Shown here: in pieces, positions 27,526 through 44,090 of the stretch
Layout of the letters: each line of letters opens with the position of its first letter
Position numbering within the stretch: position 1 is the first letter of the stretch
Origin: Gammaproteobacteria bacterium
GTDB taxonomy: Bacteria; Pseudomonadota; Gammaproteobacteria; GCA-001735895
Assembly (NCBI GenBank): GCA_030595795.1
Contig: JAUVCH010000004.1
Location: 4,502-68,501 of the forward strand
DNA: 64,000 nt
Reading direction: 5' to 3'
Notes under the pieces: generated by a model
The model's input: the letters and a program-made list of their open reading frames with translations, nothing else
What the model was told of the DNA's origin: nothing
Database searches by the model: none
Position numbers and translations under genes: made by a program

Positions 27526-28425
27526 ATGGACAGCGGGCAATATCTGGAAGCCTTCATCCAGGTGCTACGCAGCGAAAAATATTATTCGGATCATACCTGC
27601 AAGAACTACCGCCGCGACCTGCTCAATTTCCAGAGATATCTCAAGACACAGGAAGTCGCCGACTGGCAGACAGTCGGCTATCGCGAAGTCAGCGGCTATG
27701 CAGCATTCCGCCATCGCAATGGCCTGAAAAGCACTTCGATTCAACGCGAGTTATCGACCATACGTAGCTTTTATCAGTACCTGATCCGGCAAAAGCTGGT
27801 TAAGAGCAATCCCGCCAGGGAAGTCAGTGCACCCAAGTCTGGTCAGCCATTGCCCAAAACCTGCGATGCCGAACAAATCGACCGTTTGTTGCGGTCAGGT
27901 TCTAGCAAGGATGAATTATTCATCCGCGACCTCGCCATATTCGAGCTGATTTATTCCTCAGGATTACGACTCGCCGAACTGGTCAGCCTGAACCTCAACG
28001 ATATCGACCTGAAGCAACAACAGTTAATCGTCACCGGCAAAGGCAATAAAACCCGGTATTTGCCGATTGGCGCAAAAGCCTGCGAAGCCATAAAGCGCTG
28101 GTTGAAAGAGCGTCCTGGTTTAACTCGGCCCGATGAAGAAGCTCTATTTCTCAGCAAACTGGGAAAACGTATTTCCACCCGAAGCGTACAAAGCCGTCTC
28201 AATCAGCTTGCCAAACGCCAGGACATAAACCAACACATATCGCCCCATACCCTGCGGCATTCATTCGCCACGCACCTGCTCGAATCGAGCGGTGATCTTC
28301 GTGCCGTACAGGAATTGCTCGGCCACGCCAATATCAGTACTACTCAGATTTATACGCATCTGGACTTTCAGCATCTGGCCAAGGTTTATGATGCTGCGCA
28401 TCCTCGGGCTAAGCGGAAGGGCTAA
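27526..28425 (+). CDS. xerC: Tyrosine recombinase XerC
   Basis: Catalytic R…HxxR…Y residues (…HTLRHSFATHLL…, …TQIYTH); dapF-xerC synteny. Confidence 0.9.
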   Translation: MDSGQYLEAFIQVLRSEKYYSDHTCKNYRRDLLNFQRYLKTQEVADWQTVGYREVSGYAAFRHRNGLKSTSIQRELSTIRSFYQYLIRQKLVKSNPAREVSAPKSGQPLPKTCDAEQIDRLLRSGSSKDELFIRDLAIFELIYSSGLRLAELVSLNLNDIDLKQQQLIVTGKGNKTRYLPIGAKACEAIKRWLKERPGLTRPDEEALFLSKLGKRISTRSVQSRLNQLAKRQDINQHISPHTLRHSFATHLLESSGDLRAVQELLGHANISTTQIYTHLDFQHLAKVYDAAHPRAKRKG

Positions 28426-36896: not shown

Positions 36897-36921
36897 GTTC
36901 TGCCTCTGAAACTTACTGCTA

Positions 36922-38058
36922 TCAGGGGTTTATAATTTCGTCGATGCCGAAACGATCGAGCATGCTTCGAACGGCTCCTAGTGCGCCCTGCATCTGTTCC
37001 GCGTTCAGGCGCCCAATGCAACCCATGCGGAAACTGTCGGCGACAGTCAGTTTGCCCGGGTAAATCACATAGCCCTGTTCGCGCAAGCCGTCATAAAAGG
37101 CGTTGAAATCGAACTCCGGATTTTTCGGCATATGAAAGGTAATGATGATCGGAGCCTGCAATTCGTCGGGTAACAGGGTCTTGAATCCCATTTCGCGCAT
37201 ACCCGTAATCAGTAGATCGCCATTTTGTCGATAACGCCCACCGCGACCTTCGACGCCACCCTCTTCTTCGAATTCATTCAGTGCCTGATCGAAAGCCAGC
37301 AAGACATGAGTCGGCGGGGTAAATCTCCACTGTTTATTTTTCATCATCGCCTGCCACTGGTCGTATAAGTCCAGGCTCAACGACGGTGAATTACCTTTGG
37401 CTTTCTCGATCGCAGATCGGCGTGCGATGCAAAAACCCATTCCCGGTGCGCCTTCGAGGCATTTGTTACTGGAGGCGACTACCGCATCAAATTCAATATT
37501 TTTCACGCTTAACGGCAATGCACCGAAGGCACTCATCGCATCGATGAGTAAACCACGCTGATGGCGCGCGACAACTTCTGAAATTTTCTCGATTGGATTG
37601 AGAATCCCCGAGGTGGTTTCGCAATAAACCATCACCACATGACTGATCTTAGGATCGTTACCGAGGGTTTGATCGAGCGCGTCAGTATCGACTGGGACAT
37701 CTTCGGCCGACTCCTGAATGATGTACTCGCGACGATAATAATCGCAAATTTTAGCGATGCGATGGCCATAAGCACCGTTAACCAGAATTAATACCTTGCC
37801 ATCGGCTGGTACAAAGTTCCCCATCATGGCTTCGACAACGAAAGTACCGCTACCCTGCAAAGGCACACTGACATGGCTGTCCTCGCCATCGACGATAGCC
37901 AGCAGCCGCTCCAGCATGTGCGCGTTGATATCGATAAAAGTATTATCGCGCGAACCATAATCGTGCAGCATCGCCTGCTTGACCGTCGGCGAAGTTGTCA
38001 GAGGGCCCGGGGTTAGCAGGTAGGGATCGCCAGTTGGTGAACTCACTGTGGTACTCAT
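36922..38058 (-). CDS. phnW: 2-aminoethylphosphonate--pyruvate transaminase
   Basis: Class V aminotransferase fold (…LLTPGPLTTS…, PLP Lys region) and its clustering with phnA and phnY. Confidence 0.85.
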   Translation of the reverse strand: MSTTVSSPTGDPYLLTPGPLTTSPTVKQAMLHDYGSRDNTFIDINAHMLERLLAIVDGEDSHVSVPLQGSGTFVVEAMMGNFVPADGKVLILVNGAYGHRIAKICDYYRREYIIQESAEDVPVDTDALDQTLGNDPKISHVVMVYCETTSGILNPIEKISEVVARHQRGLLIDAMSAFGALPLSVKNIEFDAVVASSNKCLEGAPGMGFCIARRSAIEKAKGNSPSLSLDLYDQWQAMMKNKQWRFTPPTHVLLAFDQALNEFEEEGGVEGRGGRYRQNGDLLITGMREMGFKTLLPDELQAPIIITFHMPKNPEFDFNAFYDGLREQGYVIYPGKLTVADSFRMGCIGRLNAEQMQGALGAVRSMLDRFGIDEIINP

Positions 38059-38176
38059 AGCTAAATGCCTGTGGTTTAAGGATGTTGATTAATGTTCTTG
38101 ATCAATAAGGGTTGAGGTTTATAGCGCGTCTCACTACTATCTATCAAATCGATATATATTATGGTTGGAATAGGTC

Positions 38177-39058
38177 GTGCCGATATCACATGCCCATTTG
38201 CGCTCGTTTCACGCGGTGGCTACTCATGGTAGCTTTACACGCGCTGCCGAAGCATTGCACATCACCCAGCCCACTTTATCGGGCCAGGTCAAGGAACTCG
38301 AAGAGCGCTACGGTATTAAGTTATTTATCCGGCACGGACGTCACATCGAACTCACTGATATCGGCAAATCGGCGCTGGTGATTACCCGACAAATGTTCCG
38401 GCACGAAGAAGATGTCGAACAGTTGCTAATATCTGCACGCGCGCTTACCACTGGGAAATTGCTGGTAGCCGCCGATGCGCCCTATCTAATCACGCCGCTT
38501 CTCGCGCAGTTTCAGCGCATTTATCCGGGGATTCAAATATCAATTCAGTACGGCAACTCCAGCCAGCTCATGACCTGGCTCGAATCGCGTCGATGCGATA
38601 TCGCCCTGCTACCCAATATCCCCGAAGGCGATGATCGTTTGTATTCGATTTCGCTCGAACCCGGTCGCCTCGTGGCCTTCGTCAATGAGAGCCATGCCTG
38701 GGCTGAACGGCGCTCGGTGAGCCTGGCGGAACTACTCAGCCAGCGTATTATTTTACGTGAGCAGGGTTCCAGGACCCGGTCCATTTTCGAAGAAGCGGTG
38801 GAGTGTATCGACGCCCGCCTCAATCAGGTCATGGAAATTACGGGCCGAGAAGGCGTACGCGAGGCGGTTGCCGCCGGCTTCGGTGTCGGCATCATCGCCG
38901 AGCACGAACTGGTTGCCGATACTCGACTCCGCACTCTGCAAATCAGCGACGCCGAACTGGTTCATGCCGAGTATGTAATATGCCTGAAGGAACGCCTTAA
39001 CCTTCGTGTTACCGATGCCTTTCTGGAAATGATTCGATCCAATCAGGCTACAAACTGA
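38177..39058 (+). CDS. LysR-family transcriptional regulator, divergent from phnW
   Basis: N-terminal LysR HTH (…LRSFHAVATHGSFTRAAEALHITQPTLSGQVKELE…) and a C-terminal substrate-binding domain. Confidence 0.85.
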   Translation: MPISHAHLRSFHAVATHGSFTRAAEALHITQPTLSGQVKELEERYGIKLFIRHGRHIELTDIGKSALVITRQMFRHEEDVEQLLISARALTTGKLLVAADAPYLITPLLAQFQRIYPGIQISIQYGNSSQLMTWLESRRCDIALLPNIPEGDDRLYSISLEPGRLVAFVNESHAWAERRSVSLAELLSQRIILREQGSRTRSIFEEAVECIDARLNQVMEITGREGVREAVAAGFGVGIIAEHELVADTRLRTLQISDAELVHAEYVICLKERLNLRVTDAFLEMIRSNQATN

Positions 39059-39164
39059 TTAACTCATTGGCCAGCCCTATACAATACATCCGTAATATCG
39101 ATTTAAACCAATACCTGAATAACAGGTATAGTGCCGTTTCGTTTAACTCGGCGTACTCATATTC

Positions 39165-40415
39165 ATGACATCCTCGAAATCAAAAATTAGCGTCAACGGA
39201 CGCGACTACAAATGGCCGAACCGCCCACGAGTCGTCGTTTGTGTCGACGGATCGGAACCCGATTACATCGAAAAGGCGATCGAAGCCGGCGTCATGCCCT
39301 GGACCAAAAGGGTCGTCGAAGGCCAGGGTTCAGATTTACGCGCTCATTGCGTCGTACCCAGCTTCACCAACCCGAATAATATTTCAATTGTTACCGGCGT
39401 GCCGCCTAAGGTACACGGTATCTGCGGCAACTTTTATTACGATCGAGAAAACGATCGCGAAGTAATGATGAACGAACCTCATTTGCTTCGCACCCCAACC
39501 ATCTTTAAAGCTTTCCAGGACCAGGGCGCTAAAATTGCCATTGTCACCGCCAAGGACAAGCTGCGTCGCCTTTTGGGCAATGAGTTGCAATACGGTGCTG
39601 GCGGTGCTATTTGCTTTTCGTCAGAAAAGTCTGATGAAGCCAATTTAGAAGAGAATGGTATCGAAGGCGTGGTCGAAATGGTCGGCATGGAAGTCCCATC
39701 GGTTTATAGCGCCGAATTGTCAGAATTTATCTTCGCCGCCGGTGTCAAGCTCCTGGAAACAGTACGCCCCGACTTGATGTATTTATCCACCACCGATTAT
39801 ATCCAGCACAAATTTGCGCCCGGCAGTGATGGCGCCAATTCGTTCTATGCGATGATGGATAGCTACTGGGCAAAGCTTGACGAATTAGGCGCGGTCGTCG
39901 CGCTAACGGCCGACCACGGCATGAATGCCAAACATGATCAAAGCGGCGAACCGAAAGTAATTTACCTACAAGACGAGATGGATCGCATCTTAACAACCGC
40001 AGCCGCTCGCGTAATCTTACCGATTACCGATCCTTATGTGGTACACCACGGCGCATTGGGCTCTTATGCCACTATTTATCTGCCTGAAGATTGCGATGTC
40101 GAGCAGATCATATCTGAGTTAAAAGCGATTCCAGGCATGGAGCATGTTTTAACCAATGAGCAGGGCTGTAACAAATTTGAGCTCGCCAATGATCGTATGG
40201 GGGACTTAATACTGACCTCGGAGAAAGATACTGTTCTCGGCACTACAGCCACCCGGCACGATCTATCTGGACTGGAAGTCCCCTTACGTTCGCATGGCGG
40301 GGTTACCGAGCAAACAGTGCCATTGATATTCAGTCATCCGGCAACCCATCTGGATCCTGCCCATCAATTACGAAATTTCGATATCTTCAACGTTGCCCTG
40401 AACAACGTCGAGTAA
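39165..40415 (+). CDS. phnA: Phosphonoacetate hydrolase (alkaline phosphatase superfamily)
   Basis: About 416 aa; metal-ligand regions typical of the AP superfamily (…VVVCVDGSEP…, …LTADHGM…); context with phnW and phnY. Confidence 0.8.
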   Translation: MTSSKSKISVNGRDYKWPNRPRVVVCVDGSEPDYIEKAIEAGVMPWTKRVVEGQGSDLRAHCVVPSFTNPNNISIVTGVPPKVHGICGNFYYDRENDREVMMNEPHLLRTPTIFKAFQDQGAKIAIVTAKDKLRRLLGNELQYGAGGAICFSSEKSDEANLEENGIEGVVEMVGMEVPSVYSAELSEFIFAAGVKLLETVRPDLMYLSTTDYIQHKFAPGSDGANSFYAMMDSYWAKLDELGAVVALTADHGMNAKHDQSGEPKVIYLQDEMDRILTTAAARVILPITDPYVVHHGALGSYATIYLPEDCDVEQIISELKAIPGMEHVLTNEQGCNKFELANDRMGDLILTSEKDTVLGTTATRHDLSGLEVPLRSHGGVTEQTVPLIFSHPATHLDPAHQLRNFDIFNVALNNVE

Positions 40416-40444
40416 TAACACCCTAATTAATTGCGAAAATACTT

Positions 40445-41872
40445 ATGATTATCAGACATGAAAAAATGCGTATCGCTGGAAAACTGGTCGATAGCGATAC
40501 CAACCAGGTCGTTGAAGTTTTCAACCCCTATAACAACGAACTGGTGGGTACCGTACCCCGCGCCAGCCGCGAACAGGTTGCTAATGCTTTTGAAATTGCG
40601 GCTAACTACAAGCCCAAACTGACACGTTATGAGCGCCAGCAGATATTGACCAAAATTGCGCACATGATCGTTGAGCGCAAGGAAGAAATCTCTGACCTGA
40701 TTACCGCCGAATGCGGATTGAGCAAGAAAGACAGTATCTACGAAGTCGGTCGAGCATTCGATGTTTATAGCCTGGCGGGACAATTGTGTATCAACGATGA
40801 TGGGCAGATTTTCTCCTGCGATCTAACGCCGCATGGCAAACAACGAAAAATCTTTACGCAACGCGAGCCACTCACCGCGATCTCGGCGATCACCCCTTTC
40901 AACCATCCGTTGAACATGATCTCGCATAAGATTGCCCCCTCGATAGCGACCAATAACTGCATGGTAGCCAAACCTACCGAGCAAACACCTTTGACTGCAT
41001 TACTGTTGGCAGATATTTGCTACGAAGCCGGATTACCCCCCGAAATGTTATCCGTGGTCACCGGCTTGCCCGAAGATATGGGCAACGAAATGATCAACAA
41101 CAAGCATATTTCTCTGGTGACATTCACCGGTAGTGTCGGCGTTGGCAAGTTCATCGCTGAAAATGCAGGTTACAGAAGAACCGTACTGGAGCTCGGCGGC
41201 AATGCACCGCTCATCGTCATGGACGATGCCGATCTGGATAAAGCCGCCGAACTTGCAGTTGCTGGTGGCACCAAGAATTCCGGGCAGCGTTGTACTGCGG
41301 TTAAACGTGTCTTGTGTATCGATTCAGTCGCCGATGAATTCGCAGCGCTAGTTGCCGAAAAAGCCGCCAAACTGAAATACGGCGACCCGATGGATCCAGA
41401 CACCGATGTCGGTACGGTTATCAATGAACAATCCGCCATTCTGTTTCAGAACCGGGTTAACGATGCCATCGAAAAAGGCGCTAAACTGCTCTATGGCAAC
41501 GTGCGCGAAGGTGCGGTTTATTCGCCCACCGTACTCGACCATGTTCCCGCCGACTGCGAACTGGTTGTCGAAGAAACCTTCGGCCCACCGATTCCGATAA
41601 TCCGCGTGCGCGACATCGATCATGCAATCGAAGTCGCCAATTCGACAGCCTTCGGACTATCGTCGGGTGTCTGCACCAACCGCATGGACGACATTATTCG
41701 TTTCATCAACGAGCTAGAAACTGGCACCGTAAATATCTGGGAAGTACCAGGCTACCGCATCGAGATGTCACCGTTCGGCGGCATTAAGGATTCTGGTCTG
41801 GGCTATAAAGAAGGCGTAATCGAAGCGATGAATAGTTATACGACTGTTAAGACTTTCTCATTGCCGTGGTAG
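40445..41872 (+). CDS. phnY: Phosphonoacetaldehyde dehydrogenase (ALDH family)
   Basis: ALDH catalytic Cys (…GQRCTAVKR…) and the ELGGNAP motif; context. Confidence 0.8.
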
Positions 41873-41927
41873 AAGACTAAAGGGGAGGTCGTTTTTATAC
41901 GGCCTTTCCTACGGCCTTTACCGGGTA

Positions 41928-42500
41928 TTAAATTTGGATGAAATCGATGAATTGCTTCAATGCAGAAACGGTTTGGGGTAGTTGTTGCTTTTGAAGATTT
42001 GCTAAAAATTCTTCTTTCCCCATTGGTGGATACTTTAACGCTTCCCTCTGATTTTTTACCGCACTACAGGCTTTACCCGATGACAAGTCAATTTGATAGC
42101 AAATAAAATCGTCGGGGTGTATTACCTCTATTCCAAATTTAGACAAAATATCATCTGGGAAATCTTTTAAATTAAAAGTCACAATCGCATCGGCATTACA
42201 TTTAATAGCAGCTGCTACAACATGACGGTCATCAGGGTCTGGAAGCTCGAAAGTATTAATTAAATCTTCGTATCCCTGAACCTTAGCATCACGGACATTG
42301 GCATCCATCAAGTCGCGTATTCTCTCTAACTTTTCACGTTTAAATTTGTCTTTTCTTAATAATGCATTAATCCATTCTTCATGTATTTGATCTGTCCATT
42401 GGGCCTTAAATAAATCTGTTAATGCTAAACGCATCAACAGATCTCTTAACGGCGCAGGATATAAAACACAAGCATCATAGACAACAGAGAATTTTGACAC
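41928..42500 (-). CDS. PIN-domain protein, putative toxin, with about 60 aa of C-terminal extension
   Basis: …VVYDACVLYPAPLRDLLMRL… PIN N-terminal strand with acidic residues; overlaps the upstream HTH gene. Confidence 0.7.
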   Translation of the reverse strand: MSKFSVVYDACVLYPAPLRDLLMRLALTDLFKAQWTDQIHEEWINALLRKDKFKREKLERIRDLMDANVRDAKVQGYEDLINTFELPDPDDRHVVAAAIKCNADAIVTFNLKDFPDDILSKFGIEVIHPDDFICYQIDLSSGKACSAVKNQREALKYPPMGKEEFLANLQKQQLPQTVSALKQFIDFIQI

Positions 42501-42973
42501 TACTCATATCCCATGCCTAGTTTTTGGGACTCTACGGCGAGCTGATCTAATGTTGCCATTCTTTCAGTGTCTATTCGTTGTTTATAGTCAAAAACATTTT
42601 TAGCGAGTACCCTGCGGTGCGTGCCGACCTTGTGAAAATCTATTTCGCCTTTTTCAAGCAATCCAACAAGAAAAGGCCTACTAACATTTAAAATATTCGC
42701 AGCATCCTGAGTGCTCAATTCTGCATGTATAGGCATTATGCCTATGGCATTGCCTCGAGACATTTCTGATAAAACATCTAAGAGAAGTTGCAAAGCATGG
42801 CCTGGTAAAACTAATTCATCACTCTGATCATTACTTCCTTTAATACTTAAATGAACCCGATCTGCGTCAGCGTACTTTGATAAAGTCCTGCTTGAAAGCT
42901 TCGCCTCTTCTATCTCCTGGGCAGTTGGTATTTGAACAACGTTATTTGAAGATGACATGACTATTCCCCACAT
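42500..42973 (-). CDS. Excisionase/MerR-like HTH DNA-binding protein, putative antitoxin partner
   Basis: C-terminal helix-turn-helix (…LSTQDAANILNVSRPFLVGLLEKGEIDFHKVGTHRRV…); its stop and the PIN gene start share coordinate 42500. Confidence 0.65.
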   Translation of the reverse strand: MWGIVMSSSNNVVQIPTAQEIEEAKLSSRTLSKYADADRVHLSIKGSNDQSDELVLPGHALQLLLDVLSEMSRGNAIGIMPIHAELSTQDAANILNVSRPFLVGLLEKGEIDFHKVGTHRRVLAKNVFDYKQRIDTERMATLDQLAVESQKLGMGYE

Positions 42974-43047
42974 AAAATAGTAAATTTAAATTCTGTACAG
43001 AGAGCTTAGCATAAACGAAATAAACGAAACAGGGGTAGAGAAGGCAC

Positions 43048-43194
43048 CATCATTCGCTTCTTCAATGAACTGGAGATCGGCACCGTGGATATCTGGGAAG
43101 CACGTGGCTATTGCATCGAAATGTCACCGTTTGGTGGCATTAAGGGTTCTGGTCTTGGTTGTAAGGAAGGGGTTATTGAGGTTATGAATAGTTA
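43048..43194 (+). pseudogene. Diverged duplicate of the 3' end of phnY (last ~48 codons, ending MNS*)
   Basis: About 80% nucleotide identity to 41700-41846. It translates to …[47 protein letters not shown], against phnY …[48 protein letters not shown]…. Confidence 0.65.
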
Positions 43195-43231
43195 AATGCA
43201 TATTCTAGCGATCGTGAACACCTGATTTTCC

Positions 43232-43352
43232 ACGCATTGGGCTGATCGGCCAGTAAATCGTTGGGAAACTCGATATCGGCCTTATCAACTTCATCGATGA
43301 GTAAAATAACCTGTTCGTCCGATTCAAAGGCCTCCCACACCTTTCCCGACCC
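43232..43352 (-). pseudogene. Fragment resembling an AAA_5 (MoxR/CbbQ-like) ATPase Walker-B segment, with no start codon
   Basis: The reverse-strand translation reads …VILLIDEVDKADIEFPNDLL…, flanked by stops and lacking an initiator. Confidence 0.3.
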
Positions 43353-43425
43353 CTCAACCTAACCTTCTCCCCACGGGAGAAGGAAATTACGAGCGAAATT
43401 CGTTAATTAACGCTACAAGGCTAGA

Positions 43426-43875
43426 TTAAGGCCTGGTAGCAACAGCAGCAAACTTGCCCAACGCACCGGTCAGCTTTTTAATCACGGCTTTGCATCCGGG
43501 TAGTCGATGACGATTAATCAAAAAAGCAGGTTTATTGTAAGACAGCCAAACCTGCCCGCCGCCGTCTTTCCAGATCATCGCCTTTTGCGGCAAATCGATC
43601 GCTATCGTTTGCGCGCACTGCATCAACTTCGAGCCAATTTTGGGATTACCGAAAATCACCAACTCGGTCGGTCGCAATTTATTACCCACCGACGCGGCTC
43701 CAGCAGCATGATCGATGCGATTGAATATGGTCATGCCTTTTTTCTTCAGTACAGCTTCGAGCCGATTGGCTGTAGTTTTCACGTTGTGCGAACTTTTCAC
43801 ACTAACCAGCCCATTACCGGCCTGGGCCAATCCTGAGACAAACATCAAAATCAGTACAGGTATCAATTTTTTCAT
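43426..43875 (-). CDS. DUF302 domain periplasmic protein
   Basis: Signal peptide plus DUF302-like core. Confidence 0.7.
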   Translation of the reverse strand: MKKLIPVLILMFVSGLAQAGNGLVSVKSSHNVKTTANRLEAVLKKKGMTIFNRIDHAAGAASVGNKLRPTELVIFGNPKIGSKLMQCAQTIAIDLPQKAMIWKDGGGQVWLSYNKPAFLINRHRLPGCKAVIKKLTGALGKFAAVATRP

Positions 43876-44090
43876 TTTCTATCCTCCGTATTGTGAGGGC
43901 TTAGTCTACATCAAATTATACTTGCCCGCTTATAGCCTAATCGCTACACTCGCAATCCGCTGGTAGCGATGGCGTCGCTACCGTTTCGCGTAATCGATGA
44001 ACTGCTATTGCAGAATTTTGATCCTGTACGCCCGGATAAACTTCCCGGGTAATTTAAATGCGTTACCCGGCTACGACTTCGGAGTAACTT

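Follow-up and report, generated by a model that had tools for sequence, protein, structure and literature searches.

How does a toxin–antitoxin (TA) gene pair come to lie between two unequal copies of the end of a metabolic gene? This question is raised by a locus in a 64,000-nucleotide (nt) stretch of DNA from a Gammaproteobacteria bacterium (assembly GCA_030595795.1, contig JAUVCH010000004.1, positions 4,502 to 68,501), hereinafter designated the window. At this locus, the intact phnY gene, which encodes phosphonoacetaldehyde dehydrogenase, is followed by a TA cassette and then by a decayed second copy of the phnY 3' end. The locus is probably, though far from certainly, the scar of an insertion by which foreign DNA entered phnY and substituted its 3' end.

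A direct repeat of the phnY end brackets a toxin–antitoxin cassette

The phnY gene (40445-41872, + strand) encodes 475 amino acids (aa) and is intact, with a score of 794 bits against TIGR03250 (cut-off 636) and a Pfam Aldedh match of 2.8e-142. A repeat search found one long direct repeat in the region, which pairs 41692-41838 with 43048-43194 (147 nt, 80% identity, ungapped, start-to-start distance 1356). MAFFT aligns the two copies in the same register, and a BLAST comparison of flank against flank gives E = 8e-34. When 41873-43425 is compared with the 64-kb window, this repeat is the sole other match.

The upstream copy, A1 (41692-41838, + strand), is functional and comprises codons 417-464 of the 475 codons of phnY. 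The downstream copy, A2 (43048-43197, + strand), is a decayed relic of the same codons. A2 translates in frame (43049-43197) and by itself gives a Pfam Aldedh match (E = 2e-6) to profile positions 409-452 of 461. Its premature TAA at 43195-43197 corresponds to a TAT-to-TAA change at Tyr465, and similarity to phnY stops there. The last 11 phnY codons are missing from A2, and it has no in-frame start codon upstream; in the intact gene, these 11 codons and the stop codon occupy 41839-41872 (+ strand). The translated relic is 75% identical to residues 412-464 of the window PhnY. Its DNA is 78-82% identical to phnY of the related loci L002, L008, L006 and L021, with 82% identity to L002.

A reading made earlier from the sequence alone, hereinafter the sequence-only reading, had described a helix-turn-helix (HTH)-PIN gene pair bracketed by the intact phnY end and a diverged copy. 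It had also stated that 43048-43194 is about 80% identical to phnY, that this segment reads in frame as an aldehyde dehydrogenase (ALDH) C-terminus with a stop, and that the repeat is not a target-site duplication. Neighbours, repeat search and alignment bear out all four statements. The phnY partner, which it had placed at 41700-41846 and taken for the last 48 codons, needs correction: the coordinates of the left copy are 8 nt off, and the copy ends 11 codons before the end of the gene.

Several other sources of the repeat were considered. A target-site duplication by a transposon or insertion sequence does not fit a long, non-identical repeat with no bracketing inverted repeat and no transposase. 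A diversity-generating retroelement does not fit either, as the differences are of all types and mostly at synonymous third positions, and there is no reverse transcriptase gene. As regards an integron gene cassette, for which no search aimed at attC was made, the flanking repeats are phnY coding sequence and the neighbours are phn genes and an M24 gene, not an array. A tblastn match at 27556-27771 is weak, lies inside xerC and is spurious. An assembly mis-join is unlikely: uninterrupted identity between the copies never exceeds 12 nt, and A2 is altered at invariant residues. The same structure is present in Logan contig SRR18920793_16708, possibly derived from the same data.

The two copies point to diverged phnY alleles

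A1 and A2 differ at 30 nt. By the Nei-Gojobori method, 21 of the differences are synonymous and nine are non-synonymous, with a proportion of synonymous differences (pS) of 0.67 and of non-synonymous differences (pN) of 0.08. We compared these counts with a duplicate-then-decay process, in which the relic starts identical and drifts neutrally while the gene copy is constrained. This process is expected to yield about 4.8 synonymous differences alongside nine replacements, and the observed 21 give P = 4e-8, or P = 2e-4 even with synonymous sites mutating twice as fast. Because of this synonymous excess, A1 and A2 evidently derive from functional phnY alleles of diverged lineages. Between the window and its closest relative, L002, pS is 0.59 for phnY and 0.51 for M24. 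By this measure, A1 and A2 are as far apart as phnY orthologues of different genera, and most of their divergence evidently arose inside working genes.

The nine amino-acid changes of A2 all fall at residues that are invariant in the 120 closest PhnY homologues. These homologues are 87-95% identical overall and almost invariant at the C-terminus. A2 is therefore no longer under selection. The C-terminus of the window PhnY, specified by A1 and the tail, matches the homologue consensus at every amino acid.

The cassette as a discrete foreign unit

The PIN toxin gene (41928-42500, − strand, GTG start, 190 aa) is convergent with phnY. It matches Pfam PIN_3 (5e-10), and the called gene also carries VapC50_C. 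The protein is RSP_2648-like, with 138 bits against NF046100 (RSP_2648 family), under the cut-off of 170. Its acidic residues D9, E42, D88, D91 and D113 are invariant in an alignment of 24 sequences that includes the window protein. An exact-protein look-up of the 190-aa protein returned no record. The antitoxin gene (42500-42958, − strand, 152 aa) was found by gene call and encodes an excisionase-family HTH_17 protein (Pfam HTH_17 2.4e-8), which scores 41.6 bits against TIGR01764 'excise' (cut-off 28.8). An alternative in-frame ATG at 42973 would extend it to 157 aa. The antitoxin stop codon (42500-42502) and the PIN GTG start (42498-42500) overlap by 1 nt (GTGA), and the same overlap is present in the related cassette of L082. 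The operon, the PIN acidic residues and the DNA-binding antitoxin together suggest a type II VapBC-like module.

The DNA common to related cassettes spans 41927-43033; it begins at the PIN stop and includes about 75 nt ahead of the antitoxin start. Specifically, BLASTN alignments to L085, L086, L088 and L089 extend from 41937/8 to 43028-43033, and the alignment to L082 covers 41927-42963. The conserved upstream region recovered in this way (42959-43033, − strand) probably contains the promoter and operator. The related cassettes have 76-80% DNA identity to the window cassette, encode PIN proteins that are 84-89% identical, and lie in unrelated contexts. The guanine-cytosine (GC) content of the cassette is 37.9%, versus 51% in phnY, and close relatives have 37-40% whatever flanks them. 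By its alignments and composition, the cassette is evidently a discrete foreign 1.1-kb unit with sharp edges. The family was found on 321 plasmids, and the annotation of the partner gene on them is that of a DNA-binding protein of the excisionase family. Relatives of the cassette also occur on 74 IMG/VR viral or prophage contigs, on which the repeats lie at a distance and are loose.

Short segments join the cassette to its flanks. A spacer of 54 nt (41873-41926) separates the phnY stop from the PIN stop. It was compared with the DNA downstream of phnY in the relatives and is unrelated to it in all of them, so the spacer is not assignable to a donor. On the other side, the 14-nt junction between the cassette edge and A2 (43034-43047) is homologous to neither.

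Three small features of the cassette region were also observed. A tandem 9-mer, ATAAACGAA, occurs twice at 43011-43028 upstream of the antitoxin gene and is a candidate operator. The 54-nt spacer holds a tandem 12-mer, TACGGCCTTTCC/TACGGCCTTTAC, at 41898-41921. The window PIN protein ends …IDFIQI and is two residues longer than its 188-aa relatives, which end …IDFI (41928-41936); judging from the protein ends, the usual position of the stop codon would read CAA in the window.

Affinities of the two copies

To ask which copy belongs to the resident gene, we used the sites that distinguish L002 from L007, and tested the repeat edge as a single position chosen a priori. Over the 350 nt of phnY that precede the repeat, L002-like sites outnumber L007-like sites by 44:19. 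A2 has a ratio of 14:10 (p = 0.32 versus upstream), while A1 has a ratio of 5:15 (p = 0.0006 versus upstream; p = 0.035 for A2 versus A1). The phnY body is L002-like to about 41671, and twelve successive L007-like sites follow from 41680 on, close to the repeat edge at 41692.

The nearest relatives of the two copies differ in the same way. Those of A2 are L002, L008 and L006, all of which rank in the top four for the phnY body. Those of A1 are L007 (90%), L028 and L025, which rank 12th, 21st and 13th for the rest of phnY. The pS between A2 and L002 is 0.55, near the values of the body and M24 given above, versus 0.73 between A1 and L002. The affinities of A1 and A2 point to a replacement of only the last ~190 bp, and phnY is probably a chimera of an L002-like body and a last ~190 nt of other affinity. 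By our judgement rather than by computation, it is fairly probable that A2 once terminated the present gene and that A1 arrived with the cassette.

The same geometry at other genes

We surveyed 53 non-redundant loci that carry a cassette relative with at least 300 nt on both sides, and compared them with mock 'cassettes' of 1030 bp. A same-strand repeat spans the cassette at 12 of the 53 loci versus 2 of 219 mock sites (p = 7e-8), and repeats of at least 100 nt are present at 5 loci versus 1 mock site (p = 0.001). A protein-level survey gave 9/68 versus 1/146.

Two loci have the geometry of the window, namely the intact end of a gene convergent with the PIN gene at the PIN stop and a relic just upstream of the HTH promoter. 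In L082 (PIN 84% identical), the repeated sequence is the end of a DctM permease gene (203-nt direct repeat, 73% identity, spacing 1376). Its intact 3' end is convergent with the PIN gene, and an in-frame relic lies just upstream of the antitoxin promoter. In L154 (PIN 58% identical), the repeat (216 nt, 81% identity, spacing 1444) comes from a tyrosine-integrase gene, again from its 3' end. Both repeats carry the two-allele signature, with pS 0.79 and pN 0.11 for L082 and pS 0.53 and pN 0.09 for L154.

Two further loci have shorter repeats of a classical kind. In L120, repeats of 95 nt with 96% identity (3140-3234 and 6395-6489) surround a 3.1-kb islet that contains a transposase fragment. 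The repeats consist of the last 26 nt of icd and its terminator; e14 and phage 21 use the same target gene. In L171, an islet of about 2 kb lies at the 3' end of a tRNA-Glu gene (3664-3751, 5708-5736), with a 29-nt repeat that has one mismatch. These two loci tie the cassette family to classical gene-end and tRNA-end islets.

No flanking repeat was seen in L085, L088 and L089, which have only 109-352 nt of flank on one side, or in the Hahella, Marinimicrobium-like, Methylomarinum and P0240 group loci. A 207-nt repeat in L125 was not counted as a look-alike: it resembles a dispersed repetitive extragenic palindromic (REP)-like element and not a gene end.

Other arrangements were observed around cassette relatives. 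In L105, a relative lies just upstream of an open reading frame of 1068 aa, which, as a guess from its sequence, may encode an hsdR-like type I restriction subunit. The segments 4302-4329 and 5599-5626 repeat its first nine codons (MTDYKTIAE, 28 nt) across the cassette, and this is a duplication of a 5' end, not of a 3' end. A conserved element of about 230 nt abuts the PIN stop in three distant loci, L170, L162 (4640-4900) and L163 (4880-5140), and is doubled around the L170 cassette (314-529 and 2232-2460). It starts with a T-arm-like hairpin (GGACGCGGGTTCAATTCCGCG), ends in ...CCCACCACCA, and has no Rfam or ARAGORN match. It could represent an RNA gene that has so far escaped recognition and serves as a target for insertion.

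The interval downstream of phnY

L002 (JAOUJX010000059) is the sole relative with both flanks in common with the window, namely phnA-phnY on one side and an AAA fragment and M24 on the other. The two PhnY proteins are 95% identical, and DNA identity is 84% for phnY and 86% for M24. In L002, an interval of about 5.3 kb (2232-7590) between phnY and M24 encodes a sensor kinase, a response regulator, a VWA protein and a MoxR-like AAA ATPase. The window (41873-43912) instead contains the TA cassette, two gene relics and a DUF302 block.

Beyond A2, 52 nt of filler (43198-43249), with no match in L002 or elsewhere, lead to the second relic. This is an internal 103-nt fragment (43250-43352, − strand, residues ~97-131) of the MoxR-like AAA ATPase gene that is intact in L002. 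The fragment, WEAFESDEQVILLIDEVDKADIEFPNDLL, has 29 aa identical to L002 with 4 synonymous differences, and is surrounded by unrelated DNA on both sides. Having no amino-acid change, it appears to have been cut down later than the phnY relic was disconnected. The DUF302 block (43353-43912, − strand; gene 43426-43875) stands in place of the N-terminus and promoter of the L002 AAA gene. The phnY-M24 interval is a hotspot of insertion, loss and replacement, in which at least two or three separate events have taken place.

The DUF302 protein also has a far-below-cut-off match to NF002454 (fluoride exporter CrcB), positions 141-267 of 270. This match probably reflects a fusion protein in the seed of the model.

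A model of 3'-end substitution

An account of the locus has to accommodate what the analysis shows, namely the repeat, the two-allele origin of its copies, the decay of A2, the sharp edges of the cassette and the recurrence of this geometry at other genes. We propose that the foreign DNA carried the last ~60 codons of phnY from another lineage, followed directly by the 1.1-kb TA cassette. A homologous crossover would have taken place in the resident phnY near codon 412-416, about 41671-41692. The incoming end, namely A1 and the 11-codon tail, would complete the resident gene, so that phnY stayed functional, and the cassette would land convergent to phnY, just past its stop codon. The resident 3' end, A2, would be displaced to the far side of the cassette through an illegitimate joint at 43047/43048 and would have been decaying since then. 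The route may have been homology-facilitated illegitimate recombination or Campbell-type entry of a circular molecule that consists of the phnY end and the TA cassette. Recombination by the host is favoured because the 1356-bp unit has no integrase and no identical core at its ends. The TA pair would then resist loss and stabilise the insertion. A later deletion or replacement would have removed the last 11 codons of the relic, the histidine kinase, response regulator and VWA genes, and most of the AAA gene. The native copy, the order of events and the enzymology are all inferred.

Several points weigh against this model. An exact-protein look-up of PhnY, DUF302 and M24 found no insert-free genome of the same species and returned only Logan contig SRR18920793_16708, so relatives were used as proxies. 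Identity to those relatives is just 77-84%, synonymous change is nearly saturated, and each copy has only 20-26 informative sites. The phn cluster switches its best relative several times; because of this mosaic, a switch beside the repeat edge by chance is not very unlikely (estimate roughly 1 in 10). A maximum chi-square scan over the whole of phnY places the strongest L002/L007 breakpoint at 41033 and not at the repeat edge. Neither this cassette nor a second phnY end turned up in any of 80 phnY-bearing genomes, and a flanking repeat is absent in most of the sampled cassette relatives, including four loci from isolates or complete genomes. The machinery of entry left little trace: the 1356-bp unit contains no integrase or recombinase gene, only the PIN and HTH genes in 41873-43047, and the repeat edges share no identical core, with only ATTCG in common at the 5' edge. 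Identity between A1 and A2 extends over at most 11-12 nt, in blocks that are internal to the repeat or at its 3' end, whereas the crossover is placed at the 5' edge. No junction motif shared among the window, L082 and L154 was seen. Finally, the relic of L082 is rich in GC but has low-GC DNA on either side, a pattern that would fit island accretion or a travelling relic as well as a native relic.

The last of these patterns is also what would be expected if the relic came as a passenger. In such an account, [TA + A2] or [A1-TA-A2] was built in an earlier host and arrived together, with phnY-derived homology arms. An illegitimate joint would have linked its right end to the AAA gene, and about 4.9 kb (the histidine kinase, response regulator and VWA genes and part of the AAA gene) would have been deleted simultaneously. 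A2 has nine replacements in 112 non-synonymous sites versus none in the 29 AAA codons matched to L002, which fits an A2 that is older than the local deletion, and it stops abruptly 11 codons early beside filler DNA. In addition, two arms on one target of ~150 bp could insert by an ordinary double crossover. However, it is A2, and not A1, that has the affinities of the resident body; the pS of A2 versus L002 matches the values for the body and M24; and no second phnY-associated cassette was found among 80 phnY loci or more than 150 TA loci. We regard the passenger account as unlikely.

The sequence-only reading had proposed that recombination brought in the phn cluster and/or the TA cassette and replaced most of an older phnY. 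The corresponding scenario is that a large segment, containing most of phnY or the phn cluster together with the TA pair, replaced the resident DNA, of which only the 3' end is left. Its left crossover would lie far upstream, and its illegitimate right joint would lie inside the resident phnY. The signature of a once-functional divergent allele in A2 is as this scenario predicts, the mosaic of the cluster against all relatives shows how common recombination is here, and phnA is nearer to the L005/L007/L028 group than to L002. Yet only the last ~190 nt of phnY switch affinity, and the body is L002-like up to that point. A2 resembles the relatives of the body, which is unexpected if body and relic come from different genomes, and both flanks are syntenic with L002. 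A large replacement is thus distinctly unlikely. Of the earlier proposal, arrival of the TA cassette by recombination stands as our best reading, whereas arrival of the phn cluster or replacement of most of phnY does not agree with flanks common to L002 and an L002-like body to about 41671. The same reading had taken the remnant for the leftover of a resident divergent allele and had pointed to the comparison of its lineage. The closest phnY genes proved to be those of L002, L008 and L006; the remnant is divergent and was once functional (pS 0.67, pN 0.08), and it is somewhat more likely than not to be the native end.

A site-specific islet is very improbable. Here a tyrosine-integrase element, with an attP that overlaps the phnY 3' end, would have entered at codon ~416 and since lost everything except the TA pair, or would be mobilised in trans. 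The geometry is identical to that of e14 in icd (PMC13626634), and cassette relatives occupy an icd end in L120 and a tRNA-Glu end in L171, while one in L154 lies beside an integrase gene. The antitoxin belongs to the excisionase family, and the 74 viral or prophage contigs carry relatives. On the other hand, an integrase is absent, the repeat edges lack a conserved core, 0/80 other phnY genes have an insert at the site, and in three independent cases the cassette stands alone between repeats of near-equal spacing (1356, 1376 and 1444), which random decay of an island is unlikely to yield.

Although the copies are directly oriented and bracket an insert, a local tandem-type or long target-site duplication followed by divergence is rejected by the synonymous excess (P = 4e-8, or 2e-4 with the doubled synonymous rate), chance by E = 8e-34, and a paralogous ALDH by the 31% identity to PhnY of the sole full-length paralogue in the window (3312-4709), versus 75% for the relic, so that all three can be dismissed.

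Comparison with known systems

Substitution of a gene end by an integrating element is already known. The insertion of e14 into icd brings a slightly different 3' end and leaves the original as a C-terminal pseudogene, according to PMC13626634 (citing Hill et al. 1989). The window resembles e14 and phage 21 in E. coli icd in having an intact, probably chimeric gene and an icdC-like pseudogene across the insert. However, e14 is a 15-kb element with its own integrase and excisionase, SOS-induced excision and a defined core, whereas the unit in the window is 1.36 kb long and contains a TA pair only, with no recombinase and no identical core. At 80% identity, with synonymous change nearly saturated, the ends in the window are also far more diverged, and A2 is truncated.

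Homology-facilitated illegitimate recombination combines a one-sided homologous anchor with an illegitimate joint and operates in natural transformation. It was reportedly described in 2002, by de Vries & Wackernagel and by Prudhomme et al. The locus would be alike in that a conserved gene gains a heterologous cassette by a route free of any element-encoded recombinase, with the joint near the anchor. Unlike the window, the process usually deletes recipient DNA and leaves no displaced copy of the anchor.

At Rhs, contact-dependent inhibition (CDI) and other polymorphic-toxin loci, a new tip and one or more small downstream genes recombine into the conserved part of a gene and displace older tips as 'orphan' modules. 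As proposed for the window, the displaced tips lie downstream, and each keeps a piece of the conserved region. However, an Rhs or CDI tip changes the function, bringing a new toxin and immunity protein, whereas the tip in the window is isofunctional and is accompanied by an unrelated TA pair encoded on the other strand.

The cassette itself resembles VapBC systems with an HTH_17 antitoxin (VapC50_C, RSP_2648 family) in its two-gene operon, its GTGA overlap and its wide distribution on plasmids; it differs from the RSP_2648 family in scoring below the equivalog cut-off (138 versus 170 bits). In the literature on VapC50/VapB50 and on TA islets with direct repeats, a geometry with duplication of the flanking gene end was not found. 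What is new here is a recombinase-less, TA-only unit of 1.36 kb that has the footprint of gene-end substitution and is repeated at different genes.

Chromosomal TA cassettes are clearly exchanged between genomes, mostly without mobility genes, and their insertion is poorly understood. The window, the DctM case and the integrase case share a repeatable footprint, read here as entry at a gene end, with a substitute end from another lineage and a relic of the old end. This footprint would provide a concrete route for the spread of cassettes, and predicts short chimeric tips on housekeeping or metabolic genes beside TA cassettes. It also gives a searchable signature, namely a cassette between diverged gene-end repeats with a low ratio of non-synonymous to synonymous substitution (dN/dS).

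A bolder reading, which we consider quite improbable, is that HTH_17/PIN cassettes are recombinase-less mobile units that use a carried host-gene 3' end as an attachment or homology segment. Arrival would repair the host gene and displace its old end, and the addictive TA pair would block loss. Recombination may also involve the excisionase-family antitoxin. If true, this reading would explain in general terms how chromosomal TA cassettes move with no mobility genes.

The phn cluster

Upstream of the locus, phnY belongs to a phosphonate-catabolism cluster together with phnW (36922-38058, − strand), a gene for a LysR regulator (38177-39058) and phnA (39165-40415). Along 36900-41880, the best relative of the window switches repeatedly, and the segment is a mosaic with respect to every available relative. 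Specifically, the best matches are L022 and L008 for phnW, L008 for lysR, L005 and L007 for phnA, L002 for the phnY body and L007 for the phnY end. This mosaic suggests that phn genes often recombine among such marine Gammaproteobacteria.

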